NCBI GenBank assembly: GCA_965203905.1
Contig: CBDBDQ010000005.1
Span: 1,280,001-1,344,000, forward strand
Direction of reading: 5' to 3'
Length of the DNA: 64,000 bases
DNA from: Spirochaetia bacterium
GTDB taxonomy: Bacteria; Spirochaetota; Spirochaetia; SZUA-6; Bin103
Shown: one piece after another, positions 1 through 60,822 of the stretch
How positions within the stretch are numbered: position 1 is the first letter of the stretch
How the letters are laid out: each line of letters starts with the position of its first letter
Made by a program: the position numbers and the translations under genes
The notes under the pieces: generated by a model
The model's database searches: none
Told to the model about the DNA's origin: nothing
Seen by the model: the letters and a program-made list of their open reading frames with translations, nothing else

Positions 1-206
1 GCGTCTGGCTGCAAGCGGAGACCCTGCGCTGGGAGGACGCCAGCCACCGGCTGTTCTCGGATCCCGAGGAGACGGTGGCGGTTACCCGCGACGACGGCTC
101 GCAGGTGACCGGGGTCGGTCTCCAGGTGGACGTGCGCCGCAAGACCATCCGGTTCTCGGGGCCCGTCAGCGGGACCCTGGTTGCGGAGACCGGGGCGGGG
201 GAGTAG
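1..206 (+). CDS. lptC: LptC-like LPS-export lipoprotein, 3' part (copy 1, runs off window start)
   Basis: Encodes VWLQAETLRWEDASHRLFS...IRFSGPVSGTLVAETGAGE*, near-identical to copies at 10167 and 12889. Confidence 0.75.
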   Translation, partial: VWLQAETLRWEDASHRLFSDPEETVAVTRDDGSQVTGVGLQVDVRRKTIRFSGPVSGTLVAETGAGE

Positions 207-376
207 GCGGAAGGCGCGGGGGCGGGGGGCGCGGCGAGGCGGTGTGCGGCCGCTACGGCAGTCGGTCATGCGCGCTAGGCGCCAATCGAGAACCGGGGGG
301 CGCTGGGACCGCCGGCGCAGCGCCTGCGCGGGCGTTGCGGCCCTACGGTGGAACGCACGGATGGACTGGCTCGACG

Positions 377-455
377 GCACCTGGGACCGGGCCATACGCA
401 CGCACGGCGAACCGGAGGTGTATCGGACGGGCACCGAGCGCGACGGTCACCCGCT
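377..455 (+). pseudogene. Papain-family (C1) peptidase fragment
   Basis: TWDRAIRTHGEPEVYRTGTERDGH matches the longer C1 fragment at 39820-39890. Confidence 0.55.
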
Positions 456-499
456 CTACCCGGAGGGATCTGAGTTGCTGCTGCATCATGCGTAACAGT

Positions 500-851
500 A
501 GAGGCAAAAGCCCGCGATAGGGTCGCCTCGCGGGGGATCGCGTGTATGCACTCCCTGCCGCACAGGGGGCGCAGCGCCCGGTCGTTGGCCAGCCCTCGCA
601 CAGCGCCCTGGAAGTGTCCATATGGAATTCTGCCTTGGCGATGAAGGCGTCGCCACCCGATCCAGTTGTGGGCGAGCGCGCAGCAGCCGGCTCCGGGCGA
701 TCGTCCAGTGCCACCCCGACAGCGGACTCGATGGTTACCCGCCCCGACGACCTGATTGCCACAGGCAACTCCGCCCGCAGGGTCTCGGCCAGATCGTCAT
801 CCGAAGCCACCGGTGGGGCCGGCAAGGCCGTCGCGAGGACTCCCGGCAGAC
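500..851 (-). pseudogene. Degenerate IS5/ISNCY-like (DUF772-type) transposase relic, interrupted by IS66; 5' part at ~3170-3265
   Basis: Frameshifted motifs AFIAKAEFHMDTSRAL and LANDRALRPLCGRE..IPREATLSRAFA; ALFPELTQ..RQFIR beyond the IS66. Confidence 0.5.
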
Positions 852-939
852 GTAAGCGTCCGGTAAACCCAGTCCGGTTGCGCGTCGGCACGGTCGGGGA
901 GTCCGCGACGGGGCCGGGACGGCGGATCCTGCGGAGCGT

Positions 940-2570
940 CTATGACGGAGGGGGCGCTGGCCGGGCAGTGGGCAGGAGCGAGAGGTAGTCGGCCTGGGTG
1001 CGAGCATGGGGCAGCTTCTCGAACAGCTCACGCAGATACCAGTAGGGCTCGCAGCCGTTGGCCTTGGCGGTCTCGATCAGGCTGTACAGGGTCGCGCTCG
1101 CAGCCGCGCCGCGCGGACTTCCAGAGAACAGCCAATTCTTGCGTCCCACCACGAACGGCCGGATCGCCTGCTCGCAGGCGTTGGTGTCCGGGGTGAGCTG
1201 CGCGTGTTCCAGATAGCGGATCAGCTTCGGCCACTGGCTCAAGGCGAAGGCGACCGCCTTGCCGAGCGCCGAGCCGGGCAGCACTTGACCGTGTTTCTTG
1301 TGCAGCCAGGCGTGCAGTTGCTCCAGCGGCGGCTCTACTTGGGCACGCCGCTCGGCGACAAAGCGCTCAGGATCCGCGGCACGATACTCGGATAACTCTG
1401 ACTCGGCGCGGTACAGCTTGGCGATGAAGCTCAGCGCCTGCAGTGCCGCACCAGCGCGGCTCGATACCTTGCCCAGCGCGTCGGCCGCCTCTTTGAACGG
1501 ACGCCGTACGTGCGCCCAACACCCCACGTGCCGGATCCCCGGCTGACTACACGGACGGTCGTAGGCTTCGTAGCCGTCGGTCTGCACGTAGCCCTGGTAG
1601 TCGCCGATGATCGCGGCAGCGACTTGTGCGCCGCGGCTCGGTTCATAGCGGTACACCAGCACCGGCTCTGACGGTGGGCCGCCGCGCGCCACCTATAGGT
1701 AGCTGATGGTGGTGTTGGCCCGCCCCGGTTCCTTCAGCACCTGCACCGTGGTCTCGTCAATCTGTAGTTCGGTCCGGCGCGCAGCTTGGCATGCAACGCC
1801 TCCAGCAACGGCACACAGGCGCCAGCGACCGCGATCATCCAGTCCGACATCGTGCGTCGTGACAGCTCCACCCCGAGGCGCGCGAACTGCTGCTCCTGCC
1901 GGTACAGCGGCAGCGCGTCGCAGAACTTGGCGGTGACGATGAACGCCAGCAGCCCCTCGCTGGCCAGCCCCTTCGGGATCAGCGCTGGCGGCGGCGGCGC
2001 TACCCGTACCGCAGGATGCTCCTCGTCGCCGGAGCCCTCGCAGTGATGGCAGGCGTACTTGGGCCGCACCGTGCGGATCACTTGCACCCGCGGCGGGATC
2101 ACGTCCAGCTTCTCCGAGCTCTCCTCGCCGATCCGCACCAAGCGGTGGCCACAGGCGCACTGCTGCTGTTCCTCGGGCAAGTCGATAATCCGCTCCACCC
2201 GCGGCAGCGACTGCGGCAGCGGCTTGCGCCGCGGCCGGCGGCGGGTTGCGGCCGCCGCTGGCTCCGGTGCCGGCTCATCCTCCGGCGCTTCGCGGTCGGC
2301 GCTGGCTTCAATCTCGTCGAACAGCCGCATCTGCAACCGCTCGGCGTCGCTGAGCTGTTCATTGCTGCGCCCGTACAGCTTGTTCTTGTACCAAGCCAAC
2401 TCTTCTTCGTAGAGCGCCAGCTTCTTGTTCAGTTCCTGGAGCTTGCTGTCCAGGTCACTGGTCCTGGTCTCCAGCTGACCGTTTTGCGCGGTCAACTCGT
2501 CCTTTTCCAGAATCAGTCGACGATTCTCCAAGCGCAACTGATCGCGTTCTTGGGCGACCGAAAGAGCATC
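940..2570 (-). pseudogene. tnpC: IS66 transposase TnpC, with frameshift near 1770, in-frame stop at 1693-1695 and start deleted
   Basis: LYGRSNE, RKPLP..LPR, CACGH zinc finger, KFCDALPLYRQ, QIDET, QTDGY, GCWAHVRR, DTNACEQAIR..GRKNWLF. Confidence 0.9.
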
Positions 2571-2773
2571 CACAGACAGAATTCCGTCCGATCCCAGTAC
2601 ACCGCCTTCAGCACCCGCCGCTGCCGGTTGCAGAACACGAACAGCGCCGGCTCGAACGGACTCAGCTGCATCTGCTCCTGCACCAGCAGCACCAGCCCGT
2701 TGATCTGCTTGCGCATATCGGTCGCTCCCGGCCGCACGAAGATCCGCGCCGTTCCCAGCTCCAGGTGGATCAC
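2513..2773 (-). pseudogene. tnpB: IS66 TnpB accessory protein, 3'-truncated by internal deletion
   Basis: IFVRPGATDMRKQINGL..LFVFCNRQRRVLKAVYWDRTEFCLW then runs directly into tnpC sequence. Confidence 0.85.
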
Positions 2774-3087
2774 CGATCGTCCTCCAGCGCCGCCAGCACC
2801 TCGCGTAGCTGCGCCGCTCGCACATTCGGCCACAGCTTCAGCAGGTAGCGCTTGCCCACCACCAGCTCGATCGCCGCGCCCGCCTCCGGACCACTGACCC
2901 GCTCCAGTTCCACCAGGCGCTGGGTCTCCGGCGCTGCCGGCTTTGCCGGCGCTGGCGATAGCTGAGCCGTCCAATAGCGCAGCGACCAATAGGACAGACC
3001 GTGCTCCTCGCAATATGCTTTTTTCGACTGTCCGCTGCGCCGCCACGCTGCTACCTGGCGGCTCCAATAGTCTCGCCCCTGTCTCAT
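2770..3087 (-). CDS. tnpA: IS66 TnpA HTH protein
   Basis: WSRQVAAWRRSGQSKKAYCEEHGLSYWSLRYW motif; first ORF inside the left IR. Confidence 0.9.
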   Translation of the reverse strand: MRQGRDYWSRQVAAWRRSGQSKKAYCEEHGLSYWSLRYWTAQLSPAPAKPAAPETQRLVELERVSGPEAGAAIELVVGKRYLLKLWPNVRAAQLREVLAALEDDR

Positions 3088-3295
3088 CGTTCGTCCCTCC
3101 GGGACGAAACAATGATCCGTCTATCTCAGGCTCGGTAAGGTGTGTTTTGGCGGACGCTTACCGGCAGACCGCTCAGGGCCGATGGATCATAGAGCGTAGC
3201 CTACCAATTCGGATGAACTGACGCCTGGTTCGCCGCTGCGTCAGCTCGGGGAATAGGGCGTGAATGCATGGAGGCTCCGAATCCGCAGCAGGCCC

Positions 3296-3445
3296 GATGA
3301 GCTCGGAGAGCACATACCGGAGACCGAGCTCATCGACGTTATACACACCATCGTGCGCGACGGAAGGGTGTTGGTGGAGTTCCACGCTCGATAGGTAAGG
3401 AACTTTCCCCGCTACGCCCCTACCGAGCTGGAAGCCGCGGTCTAT
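3296..3445 (+). pseudogene. Diverged lptC-like N-terminal fragment (copy 2)
   Basis: ELGEHIPETELIDVIHTIVRDGRVLVEFHAR*VRNFPRYAPTELEAAVY aligns to LLGHIPETELTEVTHTIVRNGRVAAEFRARQVRNFPR. Confidence 0.75.
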
Positions 3446-3997
3446 AGGCTTGACATATCCCGCATCGGTCCTGCAATCTTAATGTACACCTTCTTGCGAT
3501 GACGCAAGAAGGTGTGGGCGATGGCACTATTGAGTTGGGCTTGGTGGACGTGAGAGCGTCGCGTGTTTAGATCTATAAACCAGGCCGAGATTAAGCCATC
3601 TGTAAGATCGACGCGAATCGGAAGAGGTTATGTACGTAATAGTAATACGGCTGGATACTGGCGTAGCGGGTGCGCTAAGCAATCTTGTTACACACATTTC
3701 GAGCAACCTAAGGGCGAATAAGCTACCTGGATTTGGTGTTGCTACGATGGAGCCTCGAATGGCGATGTTCGCGGGTGACCGCAATTCAATTGGGTGCGGC
3801 TCTTTTAGGACGACCTCTATCTTCAGTTTGATGCGTTAATTGGGGGAGTTCTGTCGGACGCCCGGCGCTGGTTCAGCGGCATACGCTTGGGGAACGGGGC
3901 CATAGGCTGCCGTAGCCACGTATCGTGCTGACGGGCATAGCAAGGGGCTGGACAAAACCCCCACGACTCGGTACGGTGCCTCCGTTGTCAGCGGAGG

Positions 3998-4903
3998 GTG
4001 CCGATGAATGCCAACAACGAGGGCGTGCGCAGCGCCGGCAGAACGTTCAGTGAGGCTGAACTGCGGATCGTCTGCCAGATCGTTGCCGCCGGTGGCCGCC
4101 TCAGTCGTACGCAGTTGATGGTGCAGGTGTGTCGGCGGCTGCGCTGGCAGCGCCCGAACGGTGCGCTGAAGGTCCGCGAATGTCGTGATCTGTTTGCAAT
4201 GCTGCAGCGCAGCGGTCGCCTGCGCCTGCCGCCGAAGCGCAGCACCGGGCGCCCGCTGGGCTCGCACACCGAGGTGCCGTGCACGCCGGCTGGCGAGCCG
4301 GGGCGGCCAGTATGCGGCACCGTCGGGCAGTTCGGCAGCGTACACCTGGAGCCGGTCACGACTGCCGGCGAGCAGCGCTGGTGGCGGGAGCTGGTGGGCC
4401 GCTATCACTACCTGGGCTACCGGGTGCCGTTCGGTGCCCAACTGCGCTACCTGGCGTTCGTCAGCGAGCCCACCACGACGCTGGTGGCGGCGTTGCAACT
4501 GTCCTCGCCGGCGTGGCGGCTGGCGGCGCGCGAGCGCTGGATCGGCTGGGACGAACCGACTCGGACACGCAATCTGCAACGGGTGGTCAACAACAGTCGC
4601 TTCCTGGTGCTGCCGTGGGTCCGGGTGAAGAACTTGGCCAGCCGCCTGCTGGCGCTGCTGGCCGGGCGGCTGGCTGCCGATTGGCAGCAGCGGTTCGCGG
4701 TCGAGCCGCTGCTGCTGGAGACGCTGGTGGATAGCGGTCGCTTTGCCGGCACCTGCTACCGGGCTGCCAACTGGATCGAGTTGGGCGCCACGGCAGGTCG
4801 GGGACGCATGGACCGCGCCCATACCCGTCATGGGCAAGCGCCGAAGCGGGTTCTGGTGTATCCTCTGGTGGCCGACGCGCAACGCCGGCTGGCGCAGGGC
4901 TGA
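3998..4903 (+). CDS. DUF4338 (Druantia DruA-like) domain protein
   Basis: YHYLG..FGAQLRY, RERWIGW, VNNSRFLVLPWV..KNLAS, LLETLVD..RFAGTCYRAANW..LG.TAGRGR. Confidence 0.88.
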   Translation: MPMNANNEGVRSAGRTFSEAELRIVCQIVAAGGRLSRTQLMVQVCRRLRWQRPNGALKVRECRDLFAMLQRSGRLRLPPKRSTGRPLGSHTEVPCTPAGEPGRPVCGTVGQFGSVHLEPVTTAGEQRWWRELVGRYHYLGYRVPFGAQLRYLAFVSEPTTTLVAALQLSSPAWRLAARERWIGWDEPTRTRNLQRVVNNSRFLVLPWVRVKNLASRLLALLAGRLAADWQQRFAVEPLLLETLVDSGRFAGTCYRAANWIELGATAGRGRMDRAHTRHGQAPKRVLVYPLVADAQRRLAQG

Positions 4904-6517
4904 GTGATGGGCGCTCCTCAGGCGTGGGCGAGTGAGCCGGCCGCCGACCCCTTCGCTGCCACGCGGGCGCGGTTCGAGCACCTGCTGCGAATAGCCAACG
5001 ACGTAGAGACGCGACAGATGAAGCACAGTGACCTGGAGCGACTGCTGACCAGCGAAGGTCAGGAACTGTTACGGCAACTCTACCAGAACTGTCTTGACCA
5101 GCAGGCCGAGGCGCAGGTCAGCGCAGAGGTGGTGGATGCGCAAGGCCAGCCGCGCACGCGCCAGCGGACCCAGCAGCGCCAGTTGGAGACGATCTTCGGC
5201 ACCGTCCAGGTAGCGCGCACCGGCTACGGGGCGGAGGGGCAAGCGAGCCTGCATCCGCTGGATGCGCAGTTGAACCTTCCCGCCGAGCGCTACTCGCTGG
5301 AGGTGCGGCGGCGAGTAGCGCTGGAAGCATCGAAGAACTCGTTTGACGAGACGGTGGAGACGCTCAATCGCTGCACCGGTGCCAAGATCGGCAAGCGGCA
5401 GGTGGAAGAACTGGTCAGTCGGGCGGCGCAGGACTTCGACGCCTTCTACCAGCAGCGGCGCCAGCAAGCGTCTGCGGAGCAGACGGTCGCCGACCACGGA
5501 GCGGTCGCGCCGCAGGCGACTGAGGATGCCCTGCTGGTGATCACCAGCGACGCCAAGGGCGTGGTCATGCACCAGCAGGACCTGCGACCTGCCACGCGCG
5601 CGGCCAGCGAGCGCACGGCGCGTGGCAAGCTGGCCACGCGCCTGAGCAAGGGCGAGAAACGCAACCGCAAGCGCATGGCCACGGTGGCGGTCGTCTACTC
5701 GGTGGCCGCCCACGTGCGCACGCCGCAGCAGATGCTGGCGCTGCTGGCGCGCGCTGAGGACGCCGAGCAGCAACGCTCGCCGCCGCGACCGCGACCGCAG
5801 CACAAGCGCGTGTGGGCGAGTCTGAAGCAGGAACCTCGGCAGATGTTGCAGGAGGCGTTCCGAGAAGCGCGCGAGCGCGATCCGCAGCAGCAGCAGACCT
5901 GGGTCGCGGTGGTCGACGGCAACCGGACGCAGTTGGACCTCCTGGCAGAGTTGGCCGCGCACCACGGGGTGCAGGTGACCATCGTGCTGGACATCTTTCA
6001 CGTGCTCGAATACCTGTGGAAAGCCGGCCACGCCCTGGAGGCCGAAGGCAGCCAACGGTTGGAGCAGTGGGTCTTGCAGCGCCTGGGACGTATCCTGGAA
6101 GGCCGCGCCCGCTCGGTGGCTGCCGGCATGCGCCGGAGCGCCACCAGGCGCCGCCTGACGAAGCGGCAGCGGCGACCGATCGACCAGTGCGCCAACTACC
6201 TGCTGAAGTACCAGGGCTACCTGGCCTACGACCGCTACCTGGCCGCTGGGCTGCCGATTGGCTCGGGCGTCGTCGAAGGCGCCTGCCGGCACTTGGTCAA
6301 CGACCGCCTTGGCATTACCGGTGCGCGCTGGCGACTACGCTCGGCCGAAGCGGTACTGCGCCTCAGGGCGCTGCGCAGCAGCGGCGATTTCGACGCCTAC
6401 TGGACGTTCCACGAGCAGCAGGAGTGGGAGCGTACCCACCGCCAACGTTACGCTGAAGGCAACGTGCCGTCGCTGGAACACCCGAACCCCGTGCCGCACC
6501 TGAGACTCGTCCGGTAG
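4904..6517 (+). CDS. ISKra4-family DDE transposase
   Basis: LETIFG.V.V.R.GY, PLDAQLNLP..YS, SDAKGVVM, VDGN, LDIFHVLEYLWKA, GLPIGSGVVEGACRHLVNDRL..TGARW. Confidence 0.92.
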   Translation: MMGAPQAWASEPAADPFAATRARFEHLLRIANDVETRQMKHSDLERLLTSEGQELLRQLYQNCLDQQAEAQVSAEVVDAQGQPRTRQRTQQRQLETIFGTVQVARTGYGAEGQASLHPLDAQLNLPAERYSLEVRRRVALEASKNSFDETVETLNRCTGAKIGKRQVEELVSRAAQDFDAFYQQRRQQASAEQTVADHGAVAPQATEDALLVITSDAKGVVMHQQDLRPATRAASERTARGKLATRLSKGEKRNRKRMATVAVVYSVAAHVRTPQQMLALLARAEDAEQQRSPPRPRPQHKRVWASLKQEPRQMLQEAFREARERDPQQQQTWVAVVDGNRTQLDLLAELAAHHGVQVTIVLDIFHVLEYLWKAGHALEAEGSQRLEQWVLQRLGRILEGRARSVAAGMRRSATRRRLTKRQRRPIDQCANYLLKYQGYLAYDRYLAAGLPIGSGVVEGACRHLVNDRLGITGARWRLRSAEAVLRLRALRSSGDFDAYWTFHEQQEWERTHRQRYAEGNVPSLEHPNPVPHLRLVR

Positions 6518-6928
6518 CGCCCCAGCTTTCCAGCGCTCACCTGCGCCCGCCACCCGCCGCCTGCGTACCGGCTCATCTGCGTCCGTCACGCTCCTGACTT
6601 AACTTGCCGTCCGCAGCCCCCATCGCAACGCGGAATCCCCGCCGTAGCCAGGAGTAATACATGCTCTCCCCACCACGCCTATGCCCTCCCCCGCGTCGTC
6701 GCAAAAGAGCCGCACCCAATTCAATTGAGGGTATTAAAGGGCTACTCGAGGCGAATCCGGTGAGCGGCGTGGCGCAAGTCTTTGATTTCGGAAAATTGAG
6801 CCATACTTTCCGCTTTTGATATTCGAAGCCCTTGAATGAGGACGGCTGCACGGTCGAATGTTCCGCCGATGTACTTGTCGAGTCGTGGCACTCTGAGTCG
6901 AGGATGCAAGGTTGTTCGAGGAAGGACA

Positions 6929-9313: not shown

Positions 9314-9865
9314 TCAACCAGGCGGGATAACCACTACCTTTAGGCGGTACCCGGCTATTACGGCCACGCCCGCCTGAATCGCGGATGGCGTACCCGTCAT
9401 CTGGACAGCGATTACACCTTGGCTGTAAGCGTATGTCGTACTGAGAATTACGTTGTCAGAGAACTGGAACACCTCCGGTAGCGCATACCATGATCTACCG
9501 CCACCAAGATCATAGTACGCCTCGACTACTCCAGAGCTGGCCGCTTCCGCGGTTATCTCTGGCACGTTGTACAGTGCCGTGGCGACCTCGCCACTCGCGG
9601 ATATAGAGAAATCGCTGCTGGATATCAGAAACAGACGACTTGCTACGGCAATGCCGGTCTGCCCCGGTTCCCCCTGAGGACCAGAGGGTCCCTGCGGCCC
9701 ACGTGGACCGGTCTGCCCTGGTAGGCCCATCGGACCGCGTTCGCCCTGCTCGCCTTGCGGCCCGGCTGGCCCGCGAGGCCCCTCCATCGGCTCGCACGCG
9801 ACAATCAAAACGGATATGGCGATCGCCGCCAGCACGGCGACCCTTCTTTGTAGCGCAGCTGTCAT
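9314..9865 (-). CDS. Collagen-like lipoprotein
   Basis: Lipobox LIVAC followed by ~14 uninterrupted Gly-X-Y triplets ([12 protein letters not shown]...) and a globular C-terminal domain. Confidence 0.85.
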
Positions 9866-10166
9866 TCTGCCCCCTGTGTCCTGGCACGGCACAAAGGTGC
9901 CGAGCCGTCGCAGAGAAGGCCGCCACACCTGACCCACAGCATATCCTTGGTACTCGCTCCCCGGCCGGAGTAGCGACTCCCCGCCGTCTGGAGGTTGTAT
10001 TCGGCCAGTGACCGGCATGACGCGCATCACACTAGCCTCCTCTGCGCCATCAAGGGTAAATGCTTACAGCCGGCTCGTAAAGCAGCAGCCGGAGCGCTTC
10101 GCTCGGCGCAGGTGGTTCTGGTTGTTGGTGGCGATGCAACCCGTGCCCCAGGTCGCGGCAAGGTTC

Positions 10167-10778
10167 ATGTTGCCGGGCTCGCCGCTCCGGATCGGCAGGA
10201 ACGGGACGGCGGGCGGCGGCCGGAGCAGGGCGGCCGTCACCCTGTTCGCCGCCCTGCTGACCGCATGCAGCTTCGAATACTCCGATGCCGACGCAGCACC
10301 CACGCAACTGCTTGGGCACATTCCCGAGACCGAGCTCACCGAGGTAACCCACGCCATCGTCCGCAACGGCCGCGTAGCGGCCGAGTTCCGCGCCCGGCAG
10401 GTGCGCAACTTCCCCCGCGCCGGCCGTACGGAGTTGGATGACGTGCTCTACCACGAGTACGACCGCAACGGCATTCTGGTGACCGTCGGCAACGCCGAGC
10501 GCGCCGTGTACTACACCGAGCGCGAGGACGCCGAGCTGGCCGGCGCGATCCGCTTGCGCTCCCAGTCGCAGGGCGTCTGGCTGGAAGCGGAGACCCTGCG
10601 CTGGGAGGACGCCAGTCACCGGCTGTCCTCGGGCCCGGAGGAGACCGTGGCGGTTACCCGCGACGACGGCTCGCAGGTGACCGGCGTCGGTCTCCAGGTC
10701 GACGTGCGCCGCAAGACCATCCGCTTCTCGGGACCCGTCAGCGGGACCCTGGTCGCCGAGACCGGGGCGGGGGAGTAG
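10167..10778 (+). CDS. lptC: LptC-like LPS-export lipoprotein (copy 3, intact)
   Basis: Lipobox LLTAC-SFEY; beta-jellyroll-like pattern LEAETLRW..V.VTRDDGSQVTGVGLQVD..F.GPVSG typical of spirochaete LptC. Confidence 0.75.
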   Translation: MLPGSPLRIGRNGTAGGGRSRAAVTLFAALLTACSFEYSDADAAPTQLLGHIPETELTEVTHAIVRNGRVAAEFRARQVRNFPRAGRTELDDVLYHEYDRNGILVTVGNAERAVYYTEREDAELAGAIRLRSQSQGVWLEAETLRWEDASHRLSSGPEETVAVTRDDGSQVTGVGLQVDVRRKTIRFSGPVSGTLVAETGAGE

Positions 10779-10974
10779 GCGGGAGGGCGCGCGGCCGGGG
10801 GCCGTGGGGCGTGGCGAGACGGTGTGCCACCGCTTCGACCATCGGTCATGCGCGCGAGGCGCCTGCTACCGAACCGGCTGGTGCTGCGACCGCCGGCGCA
10901 GCGGCGCAGCGCCCGCACCCGGCGTTGCAGCCTGCCGTGAGACGCACGGATGAACCGGCTCGACCACGGAAGGC

Positions 10975-11250
10975 AACGGCGCTGTTCTACCCGGGCGCGG
11001 TGCTGGCGTGGCTGCGCCTGATGGGGGGAGGCGCGGGCCGGCCACTACCTGCTGCTGGTGCTGTTCGCGGCCGGCCTGCTGAGCAAGTCGGTGGCGATGA
11101 CGTTGCCGCTGCTGCTGGTGCAGTGGTGGCGACGTGGCCAGGGTGGCCGGGTGACGCCGGTGGATCTGCTGCGGGTGGCGCCGCTGGTGGTGCTCGGGGC
11201 GGTGATCACGGCGGCCGACCTGGCGTTCTACCGGGGCGGCAACCGCCGCC
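10975..11250 (+). pseudogene. TMTC/O-mannosyltransferase-like membrane protein fragment
   Basis: LFY..AVLAWLR..YLLLVLFAAGLLSKSVAMTLP; repeated at ~16050-16330. Confidence 0.55.
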
Positions 11251-11460
11251 CCGACGCCGAAGATAGGCGCAGTAAGTGCCTCGCGGTACGCGACCTGGCC
11301 GCCGCTCACGGCTTCGCCGCCGGCGCCAGGTCGCGGCTCGTGTCGTGCAGCCACCAGGGGTCCGCGACGTGGTCGTCCGGGTCCGGCTTCCAGGTCGCGC
11401 CCTCCAGCGCTACCAGGTGCCCGCCTCCGTCCGCCGCGCCCAGTACCTCCGCGCGACCGG
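11250..11460 (-). pseudogene. Copy of the 5' region of the LytTR gene (53725-53940)
   Basis: Near-identical DNA (ggcgccaggtcgcggctcgtgtcgtgcagcc...gcgccctccagcgctacc); also at ~16335-16545. Confidence 0.7.
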
Positions 11461-11718
11461 CGTAGCGCCAATGCCGTGATGACGCCGCGCCGGGTTCACG
11501 GTTGCTGTGCCCACCGCGGCGCCGTAGCAGGAGGTGCAGCCTCCACGTCATCCGGTGTGCAGGAACTTGGCTCGCCCTCGAAAGCGCCAACGAACGGTGT
11601 CCCGTTGTAACCGGTATGGCTCGCAACTTCTCCAGGCACCTGCCCGGTCGCGCCGGCCGCGGTACGATTCTCGTGGTCACCGCCGCGTGGTATGCTCACG
11701 GGGTCAGGAGGGACCGTG

Positions 11719-12576
11719 ATGGCAAGCTCGGTACTCGCTCCCGCCCAGGTTGAATACCCCTCGTCGGACGGACGACCGGTGGCGGAGAGCGATCACCAGT
11801 TCATCCCGCTGACCTATGCCGCGAACCGGCTGCGGGAACACTTTCGCGAGCGCGAGGACGTGTACGTGGCGGGGAACCTGTTGATCTACTACGAGGAAGG
11901 GACGCAGGCGCGGGTGGCGCCGGACGTGTTCGTGGTGCTGGGTGCGCCGCGGCGGAAGCGAACGAGCTACGTGCTGTGGCAGGAGCCGAAGGCGCCCGAC
12001 TTCGTGCTGGAGGTGACCTCGCGCAGCACGCACGTGGAGGACCAGGGCTCGAAGCGGAGGCTGTACCAGAGGCTCGGGGTGCGGGAGTACTGGCAGTACG
12101 ACCCGACGGGGGACTACCTGGAGCCGGCGTTGCAGGGACTGGAGTTGGTGCCGGGGGAGTACGCGAGGCTGCCGGAACGGGAGCTGGCGGACGGGACGCT
12201 GGTGCTGACGAGCGCGGTGCTGGAGTTGGAGTTGCGGCTGACCGAGCGCGGGCTGCGGTTCCACGATCCGGTGACGGCGCGCGAGCTGCCGGACCTCGGG
12301 GAGACGGACGCGGCCTGGCGGGAGGCCGAGCAGGGGTGGGAGCAGGAGCGCCAGGAACGCGAACGGGCGGAGCAGGAACGCGAACGGGCGGAGCAGAAAC
12401 GCGAGCGGGCGGAGCAGCGGTGGCGCCGGGCCGAGCAGGATCGCCGGCGGGAGCGGGACGCGCGCCATCACGCCGAGCAGGATCGCCGGCGGGAACGGGA
12501 GGCCCGGCAGGCGGCGGAGGCGCGGATCGCCGAACTCGAAGCCAGGCTGCGCGACCGTGATAACTCCGAGCCGTAA
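11719..12576 (+). CDS. Uma2-family (DUF820) endonuclease with long coiled-coil tail
   Basis: YPSSDGRPVAES, NLLIYY, APDVFVV, PDFVLEVTS.ST..ED...K..LY..LGVREYWQYDP; AGGAGG RBS. Confidence 0.92.
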   Translation: MASSVLAPAQVEYPSSDGRPVAESDHQFIPLTYAANRLREHFREREDVYVAGNLLIYYEEGTQARVAPDVFVVLGAPRRKRTSYVLWQEPKAPDFVLEVTSRSTHVEDQGSKRRLYQRLGVREYWQYDPTGDYLEPALQGLELVPGEYARLPERELADGTLVLTSAVLELELRLTERGLRFHDPVTARELPDLGETDAAWREAEQGWEQERQERERAEQERERAEQKRERAEQRWRRAEQDRRRERDARHHAEQDRRREREARQAAEARIAELEARLRDRDNSEP

Positions 12577-12694
12577 GCTGCCACCCGTCTGGTTCGAGGT
12601 CGTCATGCCTCGTTGTCGACAGATTAGACAGAGCGGCAGATGATTTGCGTGCGTGCAGCCGTCGGTGCGCTCCAGAATCATGGTCCGAAATGAA

Positions 12695-12885
12695 CTCGCC
12701 GTCCCCCGGACCGGCGTCCGGGCCAGGCTCCGGCGTCAAGGTCAGCGTGGCCGCTCCGTAGCACGCCACGCTCCACACCATCAGCCGGTCGTTCATCGCA
12801 TAGCACCCCCAGGGGTAGAGCCCGGTCAGCGTCCAGGCGACCTCCCCGTCGAGCGTGAGCATGACGCGGCCCGTCACCTTGCCCG
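12695..12885 (-). pseudogene. Autotransporter beta-barrel fragment
   Basis: GEVAWTLTGLYPWGCYAMNDRLMVWSVACYGAATLTLTPE; longer copy at 17700-18115. Confidence 0.6.
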
Positions 12886-12888
12886 GGC

Positions 12889-13497: not shown

Positions 13498-13971
13498 GCG
13501 GGGGCGCGCGGCCGGGGGCCGCTGGCCGCGGGGCGCGGCGAGACGGTGTGCGACCTGTACGAGATCGGTACACGACCCCGCTCTCAGTGCTTGCCTCCCA
13601 AGACTTGGAAGTCGTCTACCTCGAGCTGCTCGGGGAAGCCGGGACCGTATGCCTGCCGTACCACGCGCCCGTGGACGATCACGCTGCGCTGCTGCAGGCC
13701 CCACAGCTCGGTGGTGCTCTCCGACGAGCTCGTAGTACTCGGTGGCAGTGGCGAGCACCAGGATCACGTGGCGATCTGAACCGGTCGTCGTCACCGGTCC
13801 GGTCACCATTATGCCGGAGTCCGAAGGGTCACGATCGACAGGCCAAAGGAGGGCATGGTGGCGGCATCGACATCATCGCGCGTCCGATGGAACAAGATCC
13901 CCAGTCCCCGTTTCCGCCAGCTTGCTTACGTATGCAAAAGCGCTGGCGCACCACTTCCCGTTGTACCGGGT

Positions 13972-18115: not shown

Positions 18116-18118
18116 GGC

Positions 18119-39945: not shown

Positions 39946-39955
39946 ATCGGACCAG

Positions 39956-46839: not shown

Positions 46840-46894
46840 TAGACGCGAGCAAGCAAACCGGACTGCCCACCGAGGAGGCGGGTGCCGTTGCGGG

Positions 46895-48037
46895 TTAGTA
46901 GCGCAACTCGGTGACCGACAGCACGATGCGTACCAAGTCCGCCTGCCGGGAGATGCGCAGTTTCTGGTAGATTTGCTTCAGGTGCCAATAGATGGCGCCA
47001 CTGGTGTGGCCGGTGGCTCGGGCCATCTGGTCCACGCTTCTGCCTTCCGCCAACCAGGCAGCGACTTGACTTTCACCCGACGTCAGCCCCAGAGCCGTGG
47101 CTAGCAAGTCGGGATCGACGGGATGCGGGCGCCCCGGCTCGACAATCAGTACCAGCGCCGCGATGTACCGCGCTCGGTAGTAGTGCGGTTGGGGGACTGG
47201 CACGGGTTTGACGTGCGCCACCAACGGCCGCAGCACCGACGAGCGGCGGAGCGGCATCGACCCACTGACCGCGACGTCATCGGACGTCGGCACTGCGGCG
47301 GCCACCAGCCGCTCAAGGCGGAGCCGGTCGTCCGGCGACCGGGCACGCAGCAACCCGTCCCGGTCAGACAACGCGTCACCGCGTCGCAGGATGTCGCGCG
47401 CGCGGTCGTTGACCGCCATGATACGTCCCCGCTGATCCAGGTGTACCGCGCCTATGCGAGGGTTATCGAGCAAAGTGCCCGCGGTCATGACTTGCGCCTT
47501 GGCGCTGACCAGCGCCTGCCGGACGCGAAAAAACTGTCGGATATGGGGCACCAGCCGCGTGATCATCGCGATCTGCGACGCCCCCCAACCCTCCGAGCCG
47601 ACGGGATTACCGAGGCCCCAGGTCAAGTGGGAGCCATCCGCACCGTCCATGCGCACGTTCAGGCCATCCTGATATTTCCCCACGAGGAGTGCCTCGTTGT
47701 AGACCGGCGATGCCTTCAGCTCGTCGGCCGTATACAGGTCGGCCATGCGCACCAGTCGACTGTCGGGCAGTTGCCGAAGGCGCGGTATCCGTTCGTCGAT
47801 GGGATAGTAGACTTCGACGTACTGGCGCTCCAGGTCCGGACGCCGCTGCCCACGGTAGTAGAGGCCCACGAAGTGGGTCCGACCTTCGGTGATCGGGCCT
47901 TCCCCTACCGTTAGCGCATTGCCGCTCAGACCGCACGCTTCGTCAATCAGTGCGGAGGTAGCTGCCCAAACGGTTTCGTCGAGCATGGCATCGTACAGCG
48001 ACGCCAGGATGCGCTCGAATGCGTCTCGATCGCTCAT
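46895..48037 (-). CDS. LuxR-family HTH regulator with GAF/PAS-like sensor region
   Basis: LYDAMLD...W, PHIRQ, N.RA, LGLTSGESQVA..LAEG.S..KQIYQKL.ISRQADLV. Confidence 0.88.
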   Translation of the reverse strand: MSDRDAFERILASLYDAMLDETVWAATSALIDEACGLSGNALTVGEGPITEGRTHFVGLYYRGQRRPDLERQYVEVYYPIDERIPRLRQLPDSRLVRMADLYTADELKASPVYNEALLVGKYQDGLNVRMDGADGSHLTWGLGNPVGSEGWGASQIAMITRLVPHIRQFFRVRQALVSAKAQVMTAGTLLDNPRIGAVHLDQRGRIMAVNDRARDILRRGDALSDRDGLLRARSPDDRLRLERLVAAAVPTSDDVAVSGSMPLRRSSVLRPLVAHVKPVPVPQPHYYRARYIAALVLIVEPGRPHPVDPDLLATALGLTSGESQVAAWLAEGRSVDQMARATGHTSGAIYWHLKQIYQKLRISRQADLVRIVLSVTELRY

Positions 48038-48224
48038 GATGATTCCGCCTCCAGCAACTTCGGGATGGGCGCAATTGGGTGATCGACAACAAGCGACGGA
48101 ATCTCCTAACGTGTTACCGCGTCCCGAATCACTACCACAATTGGGAGGATTCCTACGGATTTGGGAGTTGCAGAGAGTGCTGGGCGCCCGTCCCGGACCG
48201 GCTCGGGGTGTGGCACACCATCGG

Positions 48225-49502: not shown

Positions 49503-50333
49503 ATGGCCGGCGAGATCACCACGCCCCACAACAACCTGTTCCGTTCCGTGTTCGGCGACACCGCCGAGGCGTCCGCCCTGCTGCGCGCACATCTGCCGCA
49601 GGCGATCGGCCGTCAGTTGCTCTGGTCGACCCTCGCGCTCAAGTACTGCATCCGAATCTGGGAACGCGATCGCAGGCGGCATCGGAACGAGAAGCAACTG
49701 CGCCCCATCGTGCCTCTGGTGTTGTACCAGGGCAGGCGCCGCTGGCGTCACGGCCGCGAGTTCTCGGAGCTGTTTGCGCAGCAGGTCCGTCACTGGCCGT
49801 GGGTGCCGCACTACGCACACCTCTTGATCGACCAGACCAGGGCACGGCCGGACCACGTGCGCGGCGAGTTGCGCGGGCGCATCGCGCAACTCGCGATGAT
49901 GGCGACGTTCCGGAAGAACTGGCCCCTGTTGCAGCGGTTGGTGCCGCTGCTGGCGGAGTTGGCACGGGTCGGCGCCGCCGCCGAGGACTGGGAGGAGATC
50001 GTAGTGTACATTGCAGCCACGACAACGCGAGAACCGCGGCGCTGGCAACGGTTCGCAGACGCGGTACGGCGGCGCGTACCGGGAGGTGAAGAACTGATGA
50101 ACAAGACTGAACGGATGCGTCAGATCTACGGCGACGTCAGGGAACAGGAAGGGCGTCGAGAGGGCCGCAAGGAAGGGGAGTTACGAGGCAAGGTGCTGAC
50201 CATCGAGGCACTCCTCGGACGAGATGTCCCCTGGACCACCATCCAGACCGCGACCGGAATCGACCAGGCCACTTTCCACCGGCTCAAGCACGAGCTCGAG
50301 GCCGCCGCCGGCAACCGCCCCCATCCCAACTGA
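49503..50333 (+). pseudogene. Rpn subtype 1 copy with an in-frame ~51-codon deletion of the catalytic core; internal RpnS start (50097) intact
   Basis: WSTLAL|KYCIRIW lacks the SDLLY..EHQS segment present at 14110-14260. Confidence 0.85.
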
Positions 50334-55342: not shown

Positions 55343-55655
55343 AATGGCATCCTGGTGACCGCCGGCAACGCGGAGCGTGCCGTGTACTTCACCGAGCGCG
55401 AGGACGCCGAGCTGGCCGGCGCGATCCGCTTGCACTCCCAGTCGCAGGGCGTCTGGCTGGAAGCCGAGACCCTGTGCTGGGAGGACGCCAGCCACCGGCT
55501 GTTCTCGGGACCCGAGGAGACGGTGGCGGTTACCCGCGACGACGGCTCGCAGGTGACCGGCGTCGGTCTCCAGGTCGACGTGCGCCGCAAGACAATCCGC
55601 TTCTCGGGACCCGTCAGCGGGACCCTGGTCGCCGAAAACCAGCGCGGAGGAGTAG
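55343..55655 (+). pseudogene. lptC-like copy 9 (3' half)
   Basis: NGILVTAGNAERAVYF...GPVSGTLVAE plus the conserved downstream flank to ~55805. Confidence 0.8.
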
Positions 55656-55804
55656 GCGGGAGGCGCGCGGCCGGGGGCGCGGGGAGGCGGTGTGCGACGC
55701 TACGGCAGGTCGGTCATGCGCGGCAGGCGCCTGCAGCCGAAACCGGTGCGCTGGGACCGCCCGCGCAGCGGCGTAGCGCCCGCGCGGGCGTTGCAGCCTG
55801 CGGT

Positions 55805-56415
55805 GACACGATCCGCCCGCGGCGGTCGAGATGAATCAACCCCGTACCGGCATTCTCGAGAAGCTGGCCGTGCGCCGTCGCGAGGGCCCCGGATTCGACT
55901 AGCGCCAAGCGCACCCGCACGAACTGGCGTATGTGAGGCAACAGTCTCTTGACGAAGTTGAGCTGCTCCGACGACCAGTCGCTCCCGGCGACGGGATCTG
56001 CGACCCCGAAGATGATGCGCGACTCGAACGGTGCATCCATACGCACGTTCAGCCCATTCTGGAACCCGAAGCGCGGCATCGCCTCGTTGTACATCACCGA
56101 TTTCGCGAGATCCTGGCCGCGAAACGTGTCCCGGACGTGCGCGATCTGGCCATCCGGGAGTCGGCGCAGGCCCGGGAGATGATCGTCGACCGGGTAGTAG
56201 ATCCGGAAGTACTCGCGCTCCAAGGCCGTATGGTGCTCTCCGCGGTAGCAGAACCTCACGAAGACGATGTCGATGTCCGCGTTCGACGACTGACTGCTGA
56301 ACACCAGGTGATTGCCCTTCGACCCGAGGGCTTGGTCGATCAGCGCCGAGGTCGGCAGCCAGAGGGCCTCGTTGAGCGAATCGATGACGCGCTCGAAGGC
56401 ATCCTGGCGGTTCAT
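55805..56415 (-). pseudogene. LuxR sensor paralog of 46895-48037, truncated by the lptC flank (no HTH)
   Basis: DAFERVIDSL..PTSALIDQA..PHIRQFVRVR..IHLDRRGRIV then breaks. Confidence 0.75.
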
Positions 56416-57531: not shown

Positions 57532-59268
57532 TCAACGCGCCGAAAAGCGGATTCCCGCGTTCGCCGGCGGAGTGGGGGCGTTCGCGTCCACCCGGCCCAT
57601 CACCCGGATCTCCGACTCGTGGACCGGGGTCGGGGTGTAGTCCTGCCACTGCCGGACCGGCGGCGCGCCGGCGTCTCGGCGCAGGATGCGGACGCCGCCG
57701 AACTCCCGCTCCAGGGAGTAGCCGGCAACCGCCACCGCGGGGTCGGCCGACAGCACGTGACTGACCGCGGTGGAGAGCGTCGCCAGGTCCTGGCTCACGC
57801 CGCGCCCGGTGAACGCGTCGTAGAACGGGATCCGGCGATGCAGATAGTAGTAGCCGGGTAGGCTGTGGTAGGCGCGATCCACCTGCCACACCGCATCGAC
57901 ACCCGAGGCTCGCGCCAGGTACCGGTAGGCGGCGAAGACAGGATCCTGGACACGGCGGCGAATGAAACTCACCTTGCCGGTCTCCTGCGACCAGGCGCGG
58001 TACACCTGCTCCTGGTACGGCAGCGCGTTCAGCAGCCCGGCCAGGGACACGCCCAGGCACGCGGCGCCGGCCACGCTCGCCGCCCAGCGCAGCCAGGGCG
58101 TACGCCGCACCCTTGCGGACGCCGCCGCCACGGCGCGCGTCGCCAGGTCCGCGCCGAGCAGCAGCCACAGCGGAATCACGACGAAGATGAACCGGTATTC
58201 CTTGTGCGCCTGGAGCGAATGAGCCAGCAGCGCGATGGCGATCAGCGCGAGCAGCAGCCCGTAGCGCCGCGGCGCGACCAGGGCCAGCGCGAGGCTCAGC
58301 ACGCTGAGCCCGCCGCCGCCCAGCGTGAGCCACCAGAGGTACTGATACGGCGGACTCTCGCCCACCCGCCACTCAGCGATGACCATATTGAACTGGAGGT
58401 TGGTGAGGTAGGAGTGGAACAGGCCGCGCCCCCAGGTGAGTCCGTCGAGCACGCCGATCGCAAACAGGAGCATCACCGAGGCCAGGACCAGGTGCAGCCG
58501 GTCTCGGGTACGCCACAACACGATCCCCAACAGCAGCAACGCCAGAGGGGCGTACTGCAACCTTATCGCCGCCGCCAGCACGGCCAGGCCGGCCCCCTGC
58601 CACACCACCCGGGAACCGTCCGCGTTCGGCCGCAGGCACAGCGCCAGCAGTGCCAGCAGCGGCGCGGTCGCCACGAACTCGGTCATCGGCTTGTGTGCGA
58701 ACGCGACCAGCTCGTACCAGAAGGAGCCGGCCAGCAGTGCCATCCTGGCGGCGGCTTCCCCGAAGTGGCGGCGGCCGGTCCAGTACATGGCCGCCGGAAC
58801 CGCCAGCGACAGCGCGCACAACAGCAGCTTGACGGCGCCGACGTACCACCACGGCTGCCCGAGGCCGACCAGGTCGAACAGCTTGAGCACCCCCGCCACC
58901 ACGCCCGGCACCAGCCACGAACGTGCGCCGTAGAAGTACTCCCAGTAGATCACCCCGTTGCCGAACGCCAGCCGATGGGCCGGTTCCAGGTACTGCATTA
59001 TTTCGTCCGGGTGCAGCACGAAGTCGCCGGACAGGGCCACCGCGGCGCGCGCGGCGAACGCCAGCGCCAGCACCAGCGGCAGGTACTTCCAGGGCTGTTC
59101 GTCCCCGGTCCGCCGGTGCACAGCAGCTTCGAGAAACGCCGCCGCGGACGACGCTAAAAAATGCCTCCTCCTGCGCGGCCGCCCCGGGTGCCGCACTCCC
59201 GGTGCGCAAACTGCCGCCCTGCCAGTCCCGTTCGGCATGACCCTCGCAACCGAAAGCGTACTACACAC
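57532..59268 (-). CDS. PIG-B/Alg9-like (GT22) mannosyltransferase paralog (true start probably downstream of 59268)
   Basis: HPDEIMQYLEPAH, WEYFYGARSW, HKEYRFIF. Confidence 0.8.
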   Translation of the reverse strand: MCSTLSVARVMPNGTGRAAVCAPGVRHPGRPRRRRHFLASSAAAFLEAAVHRRTGDEQPWKYLPLVLALAFAARAAVALSGDFVLHPDEIMQYLEPAHRLAFGNGVIYWEYFYGARSWLVPGVVAGVLKLFDLVGLGQPWWYVGAVKLLLCALSLAVPAAMYWTGRRHFGEAAARMALLAGSFWYELVAFAHKPMTEFVATAPLLALLALCLRPNADGSRVVWQGAGLAVLAAAIRLQYAPLALLLLGIVLWRTRDRLHLVLASVMLLFAIGVLDGLTWGRGLFHSYLTNLQFNMVIAEWRVGESPPYQYLWWLTLGGGGLSVLSLALALVAPRRYGLLLALIAIALLAHSLQAHKEYRFIFVVIPLWLLLGADLATRAVAAASARVRRTPWLRWAASVAGAACLGVSLAGLLNALPYQEQVYRAWSQETGKVSFIRRRVQDPVFAAYRYLARASGVDAVWQVDRAYHSLPGYYYLHRRIPFYDAFTGRGVSQDLATLSTAVSHVLSADPAVAVAGYSLEREFGGVRILRRDAGAPPVRQWQDYTPTPVHESEIRVMGRVDANAPTPPANAGIRFSAR

Positions 59269-59374
59269 GCCGCCGTTACGCTTCCGAGCAGCGCATCAAC
59301 CCCATGCTCCGTCGGATAGTCTGCTCGGTATTGCACGGTGCGTTCGCGGCCGGATCCAGGACCAGGGCGCGCCC

Positions 59375-59635
59375 GAAGCTCCGAAGCAAGCGGTGGGGCG
59401 AGTTGGCCAACAAGATGGGTACCGTGGTCGAGGACATCGTCGCTCCCAGTGTCCGCCGGCTCGCGCGCGAGGTGTTCGAGTGTGGCGACCTGGTCTACAT
59501 CGCAGCTATTGGGTGGCCCAGGCCCACGTAGCTGCCATCGTACAACCGGACGAACTACGGCTCACTACCGGCGACATGGTGCCCGTGAGCCGGCCGTTTC
59601 GGCGCCACCTGCGTCAACGACATCCCGTTCGTGAT
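59375..59635 (+). pseudogene. Spliced fragments: PD-(D/E)XK coiled-coil protein piece plus LytTR piece
   Basis: KRWGELANKMGTVVEDIVAPS; LHRSYWVA..LRLTTGDMVPVSRPF. Confidence 0.6.
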
Positions 59636-59797
59636 GCATGAGCCGGGGCCGCGGCGCCGCGACGCCGCTACCACTCGGCCGCTGGTGCGGCACGAGTCGG
59701 CTTTGCGAGAAAACCGCGGCGGTCCGCGTTGATTTTCCCCGGCGGTGTCGAGGGTACCGGCAACGGGGCACTACAGTCGCCCGCAGGAGGCCCTCCC

Positions 59798-60646
59798 ATG
59801 AAGTACTCGCTTCTAACCGGCGCAGCCCTGCTGGTCTGCGCCGCCATGATCGGCTGTCGCGCCGCCGTTCCGACCCCGGAGCCGGAGCCCGAGCCGGAGC
59901 CGCTGCCCACCCTGCAAGGCACATGGCAGTGGACCGACAGCTACGTCGACGACCGCGACGGCCGCACCTACCGCGAGGTGCAAGTAGTGACGTTCACGGG
60001 CGCCGGGCGCTTCATCGCCTACAACGCGGTAGACGCCGACACGGGCGCCCGTATCGACGACTGGCAGGAATCCGGTGGCTGGTCCGCGACCGACACGACG
60101 ATAACTCGGACGTGGCTTGACGACCATGACGGCGACGACGAAACCCCGGCGATCCGGCGCGAGCAAGTGAAAGCCTACTACTGGCAAGAGGAACGGCAAG
60201 CGGTGTTCCTGGCGCCGGGATGGAGCGCGGATGCGGGCGCCGCCCCGCACCGGTACACGCGGGTGGCGGACCCCCTGGCGGCGCTGATCGGTACAACCTG
60301 GAACTGGCGCCGGAATGAGGGCTCCTACTCTCTGGCCGGTACGCTCACCTTCAACGCTGACGGCACTTTCGTGGCCGAATCGGTGCGCCCTGACGACACG
60401 CACCGCGTCGAGGGCGCCTACACGTGGGACGCCGAGGCGCTGGCCCTGGTTCCGAGCGATATGACGTTGACCATTACCCCCGCGGACGGCGGCGCACCGT
60501 CGACCGAATCGTTCGCGCCGGATGGTCCGTTCCGGTGGGCCGTTGCGCCGACCGACACGCCGACCGCCATCATCGTCTCCGCGCCCCATGTCGACGTGGC
60601 GTTCGAGTTTGGCGACTACCGGGACAGGTACGACGCGGCTCCCTGA
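59798..60646 (+). CDS. Surface lipoprotein of the same beta-rich family
   Basis: AGGAGG RBS, MIGC lipobox, PEPEPE linker, LQGTW..VTFT..ESGGW..TITRTW..YTRV. Confidence 0.8.
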   Translation: MKYSLLTGAALLVCAAMIGCRAAVPTPEPEPEPEPLPTLQGTWQWTDSYVDDRDGRTYREVQVVTFTGAGRFIAYNAVDADTGARIDDWQESGGWSATDTTITRTWLDDHDGDDETPAIRREQVKAYYWQEERQAVFLAPGWSADAGAAPHRYTRVADPLAALIGTTWNWRRNEGSYSLAGTLTFNADGTFVAESVRPDDTHRVEGAYTWDAEALALVPSDMTLTITPADGGAPSTESFAPDGPFRWAVAPTDTPTAIIVSAPHVDVAFEFGDYRDRYDAAP

Positions 60647-60764
60647 GACGGCCTGAGACGGTTCCGTGGCGCCCCGGACCACCCCCGGTTCGGTCGGGGG
60701 TGGTCGTGAGGCGAGAATGACGCGACTCCGGCGCGCGCCGCGAGTGACCGGAGGCGGAGCAGCG

Positions 60765-60822
60765 ACGCGCGCCGCGAGACCATCCGCTTCTCGCGAGCCG
60801 TCAGCGGCACCGTGGTACCGGC
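60765..60822 (+). pseudogene. Short diverged lptC 3' tail (copy 10)
   Basis: GCGCCGCGAGACCATCCGCTTCTCGCGAGCCGTCAGCGGCACCGTGGT. Confidence 0.55.

Follow-up and report, generated by a model that had tools for sequence, protein, structure and literature searches.

Direct repeats that recombine unequally are central to the general model of tandem or segmental gene amplification, in which the copies then undergo birth-and-death and gene conversion. Arrays of one gene are also known from antigenic variation, in the form of silent cassettes of the vls, pilS and msp2 type. Here we describe an array of lptC copies in a Spirochaetia bacterium (GCA_965203905.1), whose genome of 7.99 Mb lies in five contigs. 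The analysis centers on a stretch of 64,000 nt, referred to below as the window, at positions 1280001-1344000 of the main contig (CBDBDQ010000005.1, here C5; 66% GC). On balance, we think it probable that the native lptC locus has turned into a long-lived array shaped by RecA-type duplication and gene conversion within a plasticity zone of ~100 kb, with lptC acting as passive homology. In the listed titles and opening lines of abstracts on lptC paralogs or duplication and on Spirochaetia symbiont pseudogenes, no lptC array is described; a Caulobacter preprint (10.64898/2026.04.12.717747) reportedly deals with Lpt paralogues for sphingolipid transport.

We mapped the copies by tblastn with the 202-aa product of one of them (c5), by self-blastn and by a MAFFT alignment of eight copies with their flanks. 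Coordinates follow window numbering, negative ones lying upstream of the window. Nine clear copies and one marginal copy (c11) are present in the window, all on the plus strand; the array reaches beyond the window on the left, and the total comes to about a dozen (Table 1). A previous sequence-only reading of the window had listed about ten plus-strand lptC-like copies, two of them intact, with ragged ends and with a conserved downstream flank of ~150 bp on several. This description holds: an lptC-like stretch lies at all ten positions, where the repeat search of the window returned families of 5-8 direct copies; c4 and c5 are intact, as is a third copy, c1, outside the window; and a 3′ flank of ~120-190 bp is common to six copies (c1, c2, c4, c6, c8, and c10). 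The remaining copies are truncated or frameshifted, and their boundaries are inconstant: the 5′ ends, in gene register, fall at -11949/10082, -416, ~12904, 41467, 15335, and 55343, and the 3′ ends vary just as much. Inspection of the sequence shows, in c1, c2, c4, c5, c7, and c8, a lipobox-like LLTAC that comes after a basic and hydrophobic stretch. Copies c5 and c7 take a new ATG from their own upstream segment (U or U′), and the three intact copies have three different 5′ ends, each with the putative signal peptide kept. Antisense open reading frames (ORFs) with a high GC content at third codon positions that overlie lptC copies (for instance 15523-16062, minus strand) were dropped as a side effect of the shared third positions.

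The copies are confined to one zone of the chromosome. In a whole-genome tblastn search with the 202-aa ORF at 12889-13497, all 14 high-scoring segment pairs (HSPs) lay on the plus strand of C5 at 1268241-1335639, within 67 kb. The PF06835 search that the sequence-only reading had suggested gave seven matches in the genome, every one of them on the plus strand at C5:1268217-1335639; the concern that copies might be scattered genome-wide is thereby met with no lptC copy outside the zone. About 130 bp of the lptC 3′ flank has one further, diverged copy at C5:612678-612807.

Against the NCBIfam LptC equivalog model TIGR04409, c5 scored 58.6 bits (cut-off 38). PF06835 (cut-off 21; E 1e-9) was passed by c5, c4, c6, and c7 with 38.7, 37.2, 28.3, and 23.7 bits; c8, c9, and c10 scored below the cut-off, and the part of c2 in the window had no match. 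In a search of 40 relatives, one match was obtained from each of 37 genomes, two adjacent split HSPs from each of two others and no match from the last, which is 76% complete, compared with 13 HSPs in the source genome. A class-wide search found a match in 171 of 201 genomes; among the matches listed, the source genome had seven, one other genome (G083) had two, on two contigs, and the others had one. A single match is thus usual among the relatives searched, in line with the earlier statement that lptC is normally single-copy. In one relative, G001, the order is ymdB-lptC-lptA and, after an unscanned gap of ~0.8 kb in which lptB would be expected, rpoN-hpf-hprK-ptsH. Because both models are passed, one match per relative is typical and the G001 orthologue adjoins lptA, the amplified gene is a true lptC and not a look-alike passenger gene. 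The worry that the protein is unrelated to LptC, or merely carried by an insertion sequence (IS), does not fit these results, nor does it fit the flanks: these differ between copies, we found neither the same IS nor inverted repeats flanking each copy, and a multi-copy ISKra4-type element in the zone carries no lptC. We rejected a composite transposon or IS-borne passenger on the same grounds, together with the confinement of lptC to the zone. Separately, in six relatives of genus g2 (G013, G014, G017, G018, G020, and G023) the LptC match has one in-frame TGA, which could reflect two adjacent genes, a shared lesion or recoding.

Where did the array arise? In the relatives G010 and G009 the gene order is DAO/GCV_T, lptC, X, Y and, further on, the cox operon and ADH. 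In the source genome X, Y, CarboxypepD_reg, COX1, COX4, COX2, and ADH follow in that same order at C5:1366998-1382560, on the plus strand like every lptC copy. Some 99 kb separate c1 from its ancestral downstream neighbor X, and all the other copies lie between them in the same orientation. On the other side, an independent metagenome contig of 1438 nt, L043, is collinear with c1 and with ~700 nt upstream of it, so c1 retains the native upstream context. All copies thus sit at the native lptC locus, between the upstream sequence of c1 and the ancestral downstream neighbors. The DAO gene itself, which precedes lptC in G010 and G009, is found at C5:2154874, and a search for its remnants or its 3′ end upstream of c1, c2, c4, c5, and c8 gave nothing above chance.

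The other partners of lptC also lie elsewhere. The sequence-only reading saw no intact lptA or lptB in the window and proposed to look for the native genes in the genome. None of the 190 window ORFs of at least 110 aa matched an LptA or LptB domain, and the native lptA-lptB pair was located at C5:5503268-5504805, 4.2 Mb away, where it stands alone between two very large Calx-beta proteins (region C5:5499000-5510000). With ymdB directly abutting rpoN (region C5:1886500-1893500), the classical lptCAB-rpoN cluster is split three ways in this genome.

The copies are 88-97% identical to each other. Among c1, c2, c4, c5, c6, and c8 the ratio of non-synonymous to synonymous divergence (dN/dS) is 0.13-0.32 at a dS of 0.12-0.27, variable sites fall on the three codon positions as 16/16/52, and the changes private to one copy are mostly synonymous in every copy but c8 (9 non-synonymous versus 4 synonymous). 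This mostly synonymous divergence implies that the majority of the copies spent most of their history as functional genes, whether here as paralogues or in related strains. The 45 informative sites fall into mutually incompatible blocks, and the copies are therefore recombinant mosaics.

One duplication within the array can be followed in detail. The sequence at 10262-12694 recurs at 15335-17701 with 92% identity, and 12695-13277 recurs at 17925-18507 with 97%. In the first of these blocks, a 2.4-kb duplicate, the flank, the pseudogene fragment, the intergenic DNA and the Uma2 gene are 0.5-2.2% diverged and the lptC part 6.2%; 21 of the 32 differences in the lptC part are at third codon positions, and mismatches are densest at 10322-10486. 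Because it is so much more diverged than the rest of the duplicate, the lptC part has been overwritten from other copies. Taken as a whole, the unit c6 (codon 33 to the end)-D-U-c7 (codons 1-131) is a copy of c4-D-U-c5. Since both ends of this 3-kb duplication lie inside lptC, the lptC tracts do act as homology at which DNA is duplicated and exchanged. A break in an old lptC remnant spanning codons 33-131 may have left ends that paired with c4 and c5, with the intervening DNA then copied in. Gap repair from c4 and c5 would account simply for the duplication; an end-joined 3-kb fragment would look alike.

A wider history can be proposed along the same lines. Direct lptC repeats would have arisen by an early local duplication. 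Between these repeats, RecA-dependent recombination, whether unequal or ectopic, and gap repair may then have duplicated, truncated and reshuffled lptC and the DNA between its copies, while illegitimate joins, possibly of the Ku type, would have produced the ragged ends; the genome has one gene each for RecA and Ku. IS elements and lower-GC DNA would have inserted independently. Throughout, lptC would be a mere stretch of homology with no specialised site, leaving three intact copies and the rest decaying.

The metagenome contig L043 offers an outside reference for this history. A c5 query found no related locus among genome contigs and, among metagenome contigs, L043 as its single match, at 86.5% identity overall and 87.7% upstream of the gene. 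The lptC of L043 differs from the copies of the source genome by a dS of 0.15-0.20, the same range as among the copies themselves. It is fixed apart from all six at 8 sites and shares 20 minor alleles with subsets of them. The native-type upstream sequence of c4 (~100 bp) is identical to c1 at 91 of 103 positions and to L043 at 94 of 103.

Several points weigh against a long-lived array built by duplication and conversion in place. Its dN/dS is low, whereas plain in-situ decay of redundant duplicates predicts a value nearer 1: either several copies were long kept functional here or the alleles came from other strains. The distances and shared alleles of L043 fit inter-lineage exchange as well as an ancient array. 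The analysis recovered neither the sequence in which the duplications took place nor any recombination intermediate, and beyond read length the order of the copies comes from the assembly alone.

These points bear on an alternative in which the array grew by accretion. Circles holding one lptC and adjacent DNA would be excised between repeats, passed between strains and re-inserted by a single RecA crossover at a resident lptC, each event adding cargo and one lptC, and the copies would be alleles that evolved as functional single-copy genes in donor strains. Such a process would be consistent with the low dN/dS and the synonymous-rich private changes, found even in copies that are now broken, with the variants shared with the orthologue of another population (L043), with the direct orientation of all copies at the native locus, with the lower GC content of some cargo (58-61% versus 66% for C5), with a different set of copies in a second assembly (below) and with the presence of RecA. 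We nevertheless consider it unlikely. A clean single crossover gives full-length hybrids, but the ends here are ragged (codons 1-32 are missing from c6, c7 stops after codon 131, and c10 has no codon before 100). The sole traceable duplication, from c4-D-U-c5 to c6-D-U-c7, arose within this genome, at a flank divergence of 0.5-2.2%; much of the cargo consists of IS elements or of old paralogues and fragments of neighboring genes; and no interpretable circle or permuted junction was seen in Logan contigs. An integrase-free, RecA-based accretion locus, with lptC as a portable anchor and the copies recording donor alleles, would explain the low dN/dS and the shared variants, and we regard it as quite improbable. 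The earlier proposal of lptC as a homology anchor therefore survives in part: the copies are direct, lie at the native locus, recombine with one another, bound a 3-kb duplication that ends inside the gene and form a different set in a second assembly, but we saw no gain of foreign DNA through lptC.

Could the array instead have been selected? With lptAB and its own upstream operon partner now elsewhere, lptC might have been favored in extra functional copies, either for dosage or as paralogues matched to the many GT-C glycosyltransferases of the zone, with the broken copies representing turnover of an lptC gene family. The distant lptA-lptB pair, the abutting ymdB and rpoN and the displaced DAO gene agree with this, as do the three intact copies that keep a putative signal peptide behind three different 5′ ends, the new ATG gained by c5 and c7, the low dN/dS and the presence in the zone of GT22 (four), PMT_2/TPR (three) and GT2-GtrA fusion genes. 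At most 3 of 12 copies, however, are counted intact (c11 being marginal), no relative searched has more than one copy, and no LptC variant goes consistently with any one glycosyltransferase. We judge selection for amplification or for diversification rather unlikely.

The sequence-only reading had gone on to propose an integron-like gene-capture array. The locus has no cassettes, no constant boundaries, no structured site and no recombinase, and much of its cargo is self-moving IS or old paralogues and neighbor-gene fragments. None of the 28 genome matches to the tyrosine recombinase family PF00589 lies within C5:1.245-1.42 Mb, and no recombinase domain occurs among the 190 window ORFs. The tRNA gene scan found no gene and the Rfam scan matched no family. 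The 3′ flank of lptC folded no better than shuffled sequence (z 0.05), with an unfavorable alignment covariation term of +3.7 kcal/mol. Integron-like capture is an over-reading of apparent duplication, gene conversion and decay. The same results bear on a tandem accretion of site-specific integrative elements that had lptC for an attachment gene and each brought in a piece of it as a replacement. Direct repeats of a target gene that punctuate variable DNA are the usual footprint of such elements, but the zone lacks tyrosine recombinases, the window ORFs lack a recombinase domain, the repeat boundaries are inconstant and there is neither a tRNA gene nor a structured site. This reading is close to refuted, and we hold it to be highly implausible.

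A second public assembly also bears on the age of the array. Clustering of proteins at 90% put c4 and c5 in one cluster of nine, which also held a longer gene call of c1 (P0004), four LptC-like ORFs of 202, 188, 171, and 90 aa, each listed with a 16,258-nt ENA contig, and one more from a 65,789-nt contig; the shorter form of c1 was absent from the collection. The four ORFs were taken to lie on one 16-kb contig because the same length is listed for each. One of them is of the c5 type, including the c5 N-terminus (98.2%); the others reach at most ~96% identity to the six copies of the source genome compared. The sequence-only reading had suggested comparing the locus across related genomes, and the second assembly does encode a different set of lptC-like ORFs, apparently on one contig. 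From these sequences, the array would be at least as old as the split from a sister population, and its form is not the same in the two assemblies in which it is present.

Read support was taken from Logan contigs in all runs, where depth and uncovered stretches are uninformative. In run X8, which may be the source sample, contigs pass with 0 differences across the left end of c4 (9800-10237) and the right ends of c5 (13443-14043) and c7 (18473-18926). The boundary of U′ at 17925 is crossed by contigs in X8, X9 (a run of the same study), and X10; runs with small shares (X3-X7) were left aside. A contig at 15051-15364 extends only 30 letters past the left end of c6 and was not counted as a bridge. 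Two further observations fell below reliability limits and were not used: in X9 the D-segment contigs are far deeper than the c5-Rpn stretch, and X1 joins 10685>18675 (side 25, 36 extra letters), with a back-joint at 18214>10088; both may reflect different arrangements in other strains.

It could be argued that the array is an artefact, produced when a metagenome-derived assembly strung together, in tandem, the versions of a single hypervariable locus from different strains. The CheckM-type contamination of 7.9% would fit such an origin, as would the four small contigs, which largely repeat chromosomal sequence (C2 90%, C1 61%, C3 41%, and C4 16%). On the other hand, c4-c7 take up no more than 8.5 kb and c8-c9 no more than 1.1 kb; with differences of 3-12%, the copies would not collapse or be confused; short-read contigs cross three of the copy boundaries exactly and do so at similar depths (6.6-11 in X8); and a single 16-kb contig of the second assembly apparently holds four copies. 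Given the bridges, that multi-copy contig and the divergence of the copies, mis-assembly of the close clusters is unlikely, and we consider an artefact very unlikely as the source of the array.

The surroundings agree with the picture of a plasticity zone. Repeats make up 7.3% of the genome, and the bins at 1.2-1.4 Mb rank first and second for local duplications, with several other zones comparable. A He_PIG/LuxR block at 43697-48056 recurs several times, inverted and at 82-91%, at C5:1393034-1406918, 50-60 kb beyond the window, so the zone extends to at least C5:1.41 Mb. The small contig C3 shares with the zone an Rpn segment (87%) and a kinase/regulator segment (91%) and carries several tyrosine recombinases.

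Table 1 Copies of lptC and other features mapped in and beside the window (window numbering; negative positions lie upstream)
Feature	Position	Strand	Description
c1	-11949..-11133 (C5:1268052-1268868)	+	Intact, ATG at -11876; full copy upstream of window
c2	-416..375	+	Frameshifted (1-nt deletion); frame ends 137 codons past lipobox Cys; 3′ part and flank in window at 1-375
c3	3293-3445	+	Old remnant, codons 44-94; 65% aa and 74% nt identity; one internal stop; tblastn E 1e-15
c4	10082-10964, coding sequence 10167-10778	+	Intact; ATG 10167; ~100 bp native-type upstream and 3′ flank
c5	Coding sequence 12889-13497; homology to other copies 12904-13545	+	Intact; ATG 12889; 202 aa; lipobox LLTAC
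c6	15335-16039	+	Starts at lipobox Cys codon; no start codon; frameshifted
c7	ORF 18119-18694, homology 18134-18507	+	First 131 lptC codons joined to unrelated tail
c8	41467-42187	+	Full-length, frameshifted, no start codon
c9	42356-42545	+	Old C-terminal remnant; 70% nt and 58% aa identity; E 4e-9
c10	55343-55810	+	lptC codon 100 to stop, plus 3′ flank
c11	60763-60826	+	Marginal C-terminal remnant; 81% over 64 nt; tblastn E 0.92
Rpn (YhgA-like) 5′ fragment	373-499	+	Directly after c2 flank; 78% to 39808-39936 inside Rpn ORF 39695-40936
Degenerate IS66-family element	943-3112	-	Transposase split over two ORFs; TnpB-like orf2 partial
ISKra4-family IS, 2.9 kb	3790-6719	+	DruA-domain ORF and transposase; four further C5 copies at 99%
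Segment D	10965-12694	+	Internal PMT_2/TPR glycosyltransferase gene fragment and Uma2 gene (11692-12576)
Segment U	12695-12903	+	Upstream sequence common to c5 and c7 only; supplies their ATG
Rpn family recombination-promoting nuclease gene	13855-15006	+	
Segment D′	16040-17701	+	Duplicate of D (PMT_2/TPR fragment and Uma2 16776-17555), 0.5-2.2% diverged
Segment U′	17925-18133	+	Duplicate of U, 97%
GT22 (Alg9-like, GT-C) glycosyltransferase	18792-20708	-	Paralogue of 57535-59268 and of two fragments upstream of window
PMT_2 and TPR glycosyltransferase paralogue	22465-24828	-	
Rpn family gene	39695-40939	+	530 bp upstream of c8
Papain-like (C39_2/C70) peptidase gene	42614-43282	-	
Partial Rpn gene	49503-50333	+	90-96% to 13937-15007
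GT22 glycosyltransferase paralogue	57535-59268	-	

The DNA between the copies includes, on both strands, IS elements, fragments of genes and stretches of several genes, with no discrete single-gene cassettes in one orientation. The earlier statement that different cargo follows each copy needs qualification: the same duplicated 1.7 kb follows c4 and c6, and two of the cargoes are IS elements (IS66 and ISKra4-family); otherwise the cargo is indeed mixed. Glycosyltransferases in the window comprise two intact GT22 genes, one PMT_2/TPR gene and several PMT_2/TPR fragments. There are also two Uma2 genes, histidine kinase/response regulator genes, LuxR/MalT regulators, He_PIG proteins, a LytTR regulator and 3 of the 16 Rpn matches found genome-wide. 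Some of these stretches have the low GC content given above. Pairs of paralogues within the zone differ widely in dS: 0.66 for GT22, 0.99 for histidine kinase-response regulator, 1.1 for Rpn, 0.26 for He_PIG, and 0.01 for Uma2. The two Uma2 genes contain a 21-nt tandem repeat (12343-12509 and 17406-17488) that encodes an acidic/basic ER-rich repeat, and at this repeat the two copies differ by gaps of 63 nt and 42 nt. An element of ~110 nt occurs in five copies, all on the plus strand (21980-22200, 25127-25303, 31032-31177, 33409-33531, and 39245-39347); all five of its blastn matches in the genome are these, and it has hairpin-capable stretches, no covariation and no Rfam match. Upstream of the window a GT2-GtrA fusion stands beside a PMT_2/TPR enzyme (L015:2431-5314), which we take to be a gtr-like layout; together with four GT22 genes or fragments, this makes the zone rich in genes for glycan modification.

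As a marker of lipopolysaccharide transport, lptC is regarded as essential and single-copy; here it would have seeded a repeat array after losing its operon partners. Such an array offers a natural record of tolerated LptC substitutions and illustrates the way in which, in a repeat-rich genome, any gene can come to serve as a scaffold for recombination. It also calls for caution in measures of copy number and of 'contamination' on metagenome-assembled genomes. If the copies were imported alleles, the locus would represent gene accretion with no requirement beyond RecA and a gene held in common.

How, then, does the lptC array compare with described systems? With integrons it shares the ordered layout, with variable genes set apart from each other by a repeated element. 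Unlike them, it lacks an IntI-type integrase, an attC-like folded site and single-gene promoterless cassettes, its cargo lies on both strands, and its repeat is a whole protein-coding gene with ragged ends. Islands accreted at an attachment gene (a tRNA, tmRNA or protein gene) likewise have direct partial copies of the target that mark blocks at the native locus; in contrast to these, no integrase was found in the zone, the boundaries vary, and several copies are full-length and not of short, att-like size. As in silent-cassette arrays, a few expressible copies stand beside truncated copies in the same direction and exchange sequence with them by gene conversion. Those arrays differ from this one in their hypervariable blocks, in place of which we see mostly synonymous sites (16/16/52; dN/dS 0.13-0.32), and LptC is a periplasmic bridge protein, not a surface antigen. 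Compared with tandem amplification, the amplified gene is unusual in being an essential and otherwise single-copy gene of envelope biogenesis, its copies are old (dS up to 0.27) and have diverged under purifying selection, and the array persists in altered form in a second assembly without collapse. With that model it nevertheless shares direct copies, nested duplicated blocks, mosaic repeats, the presence of RecA and intact copies standing among truncated and frameshifted ones.

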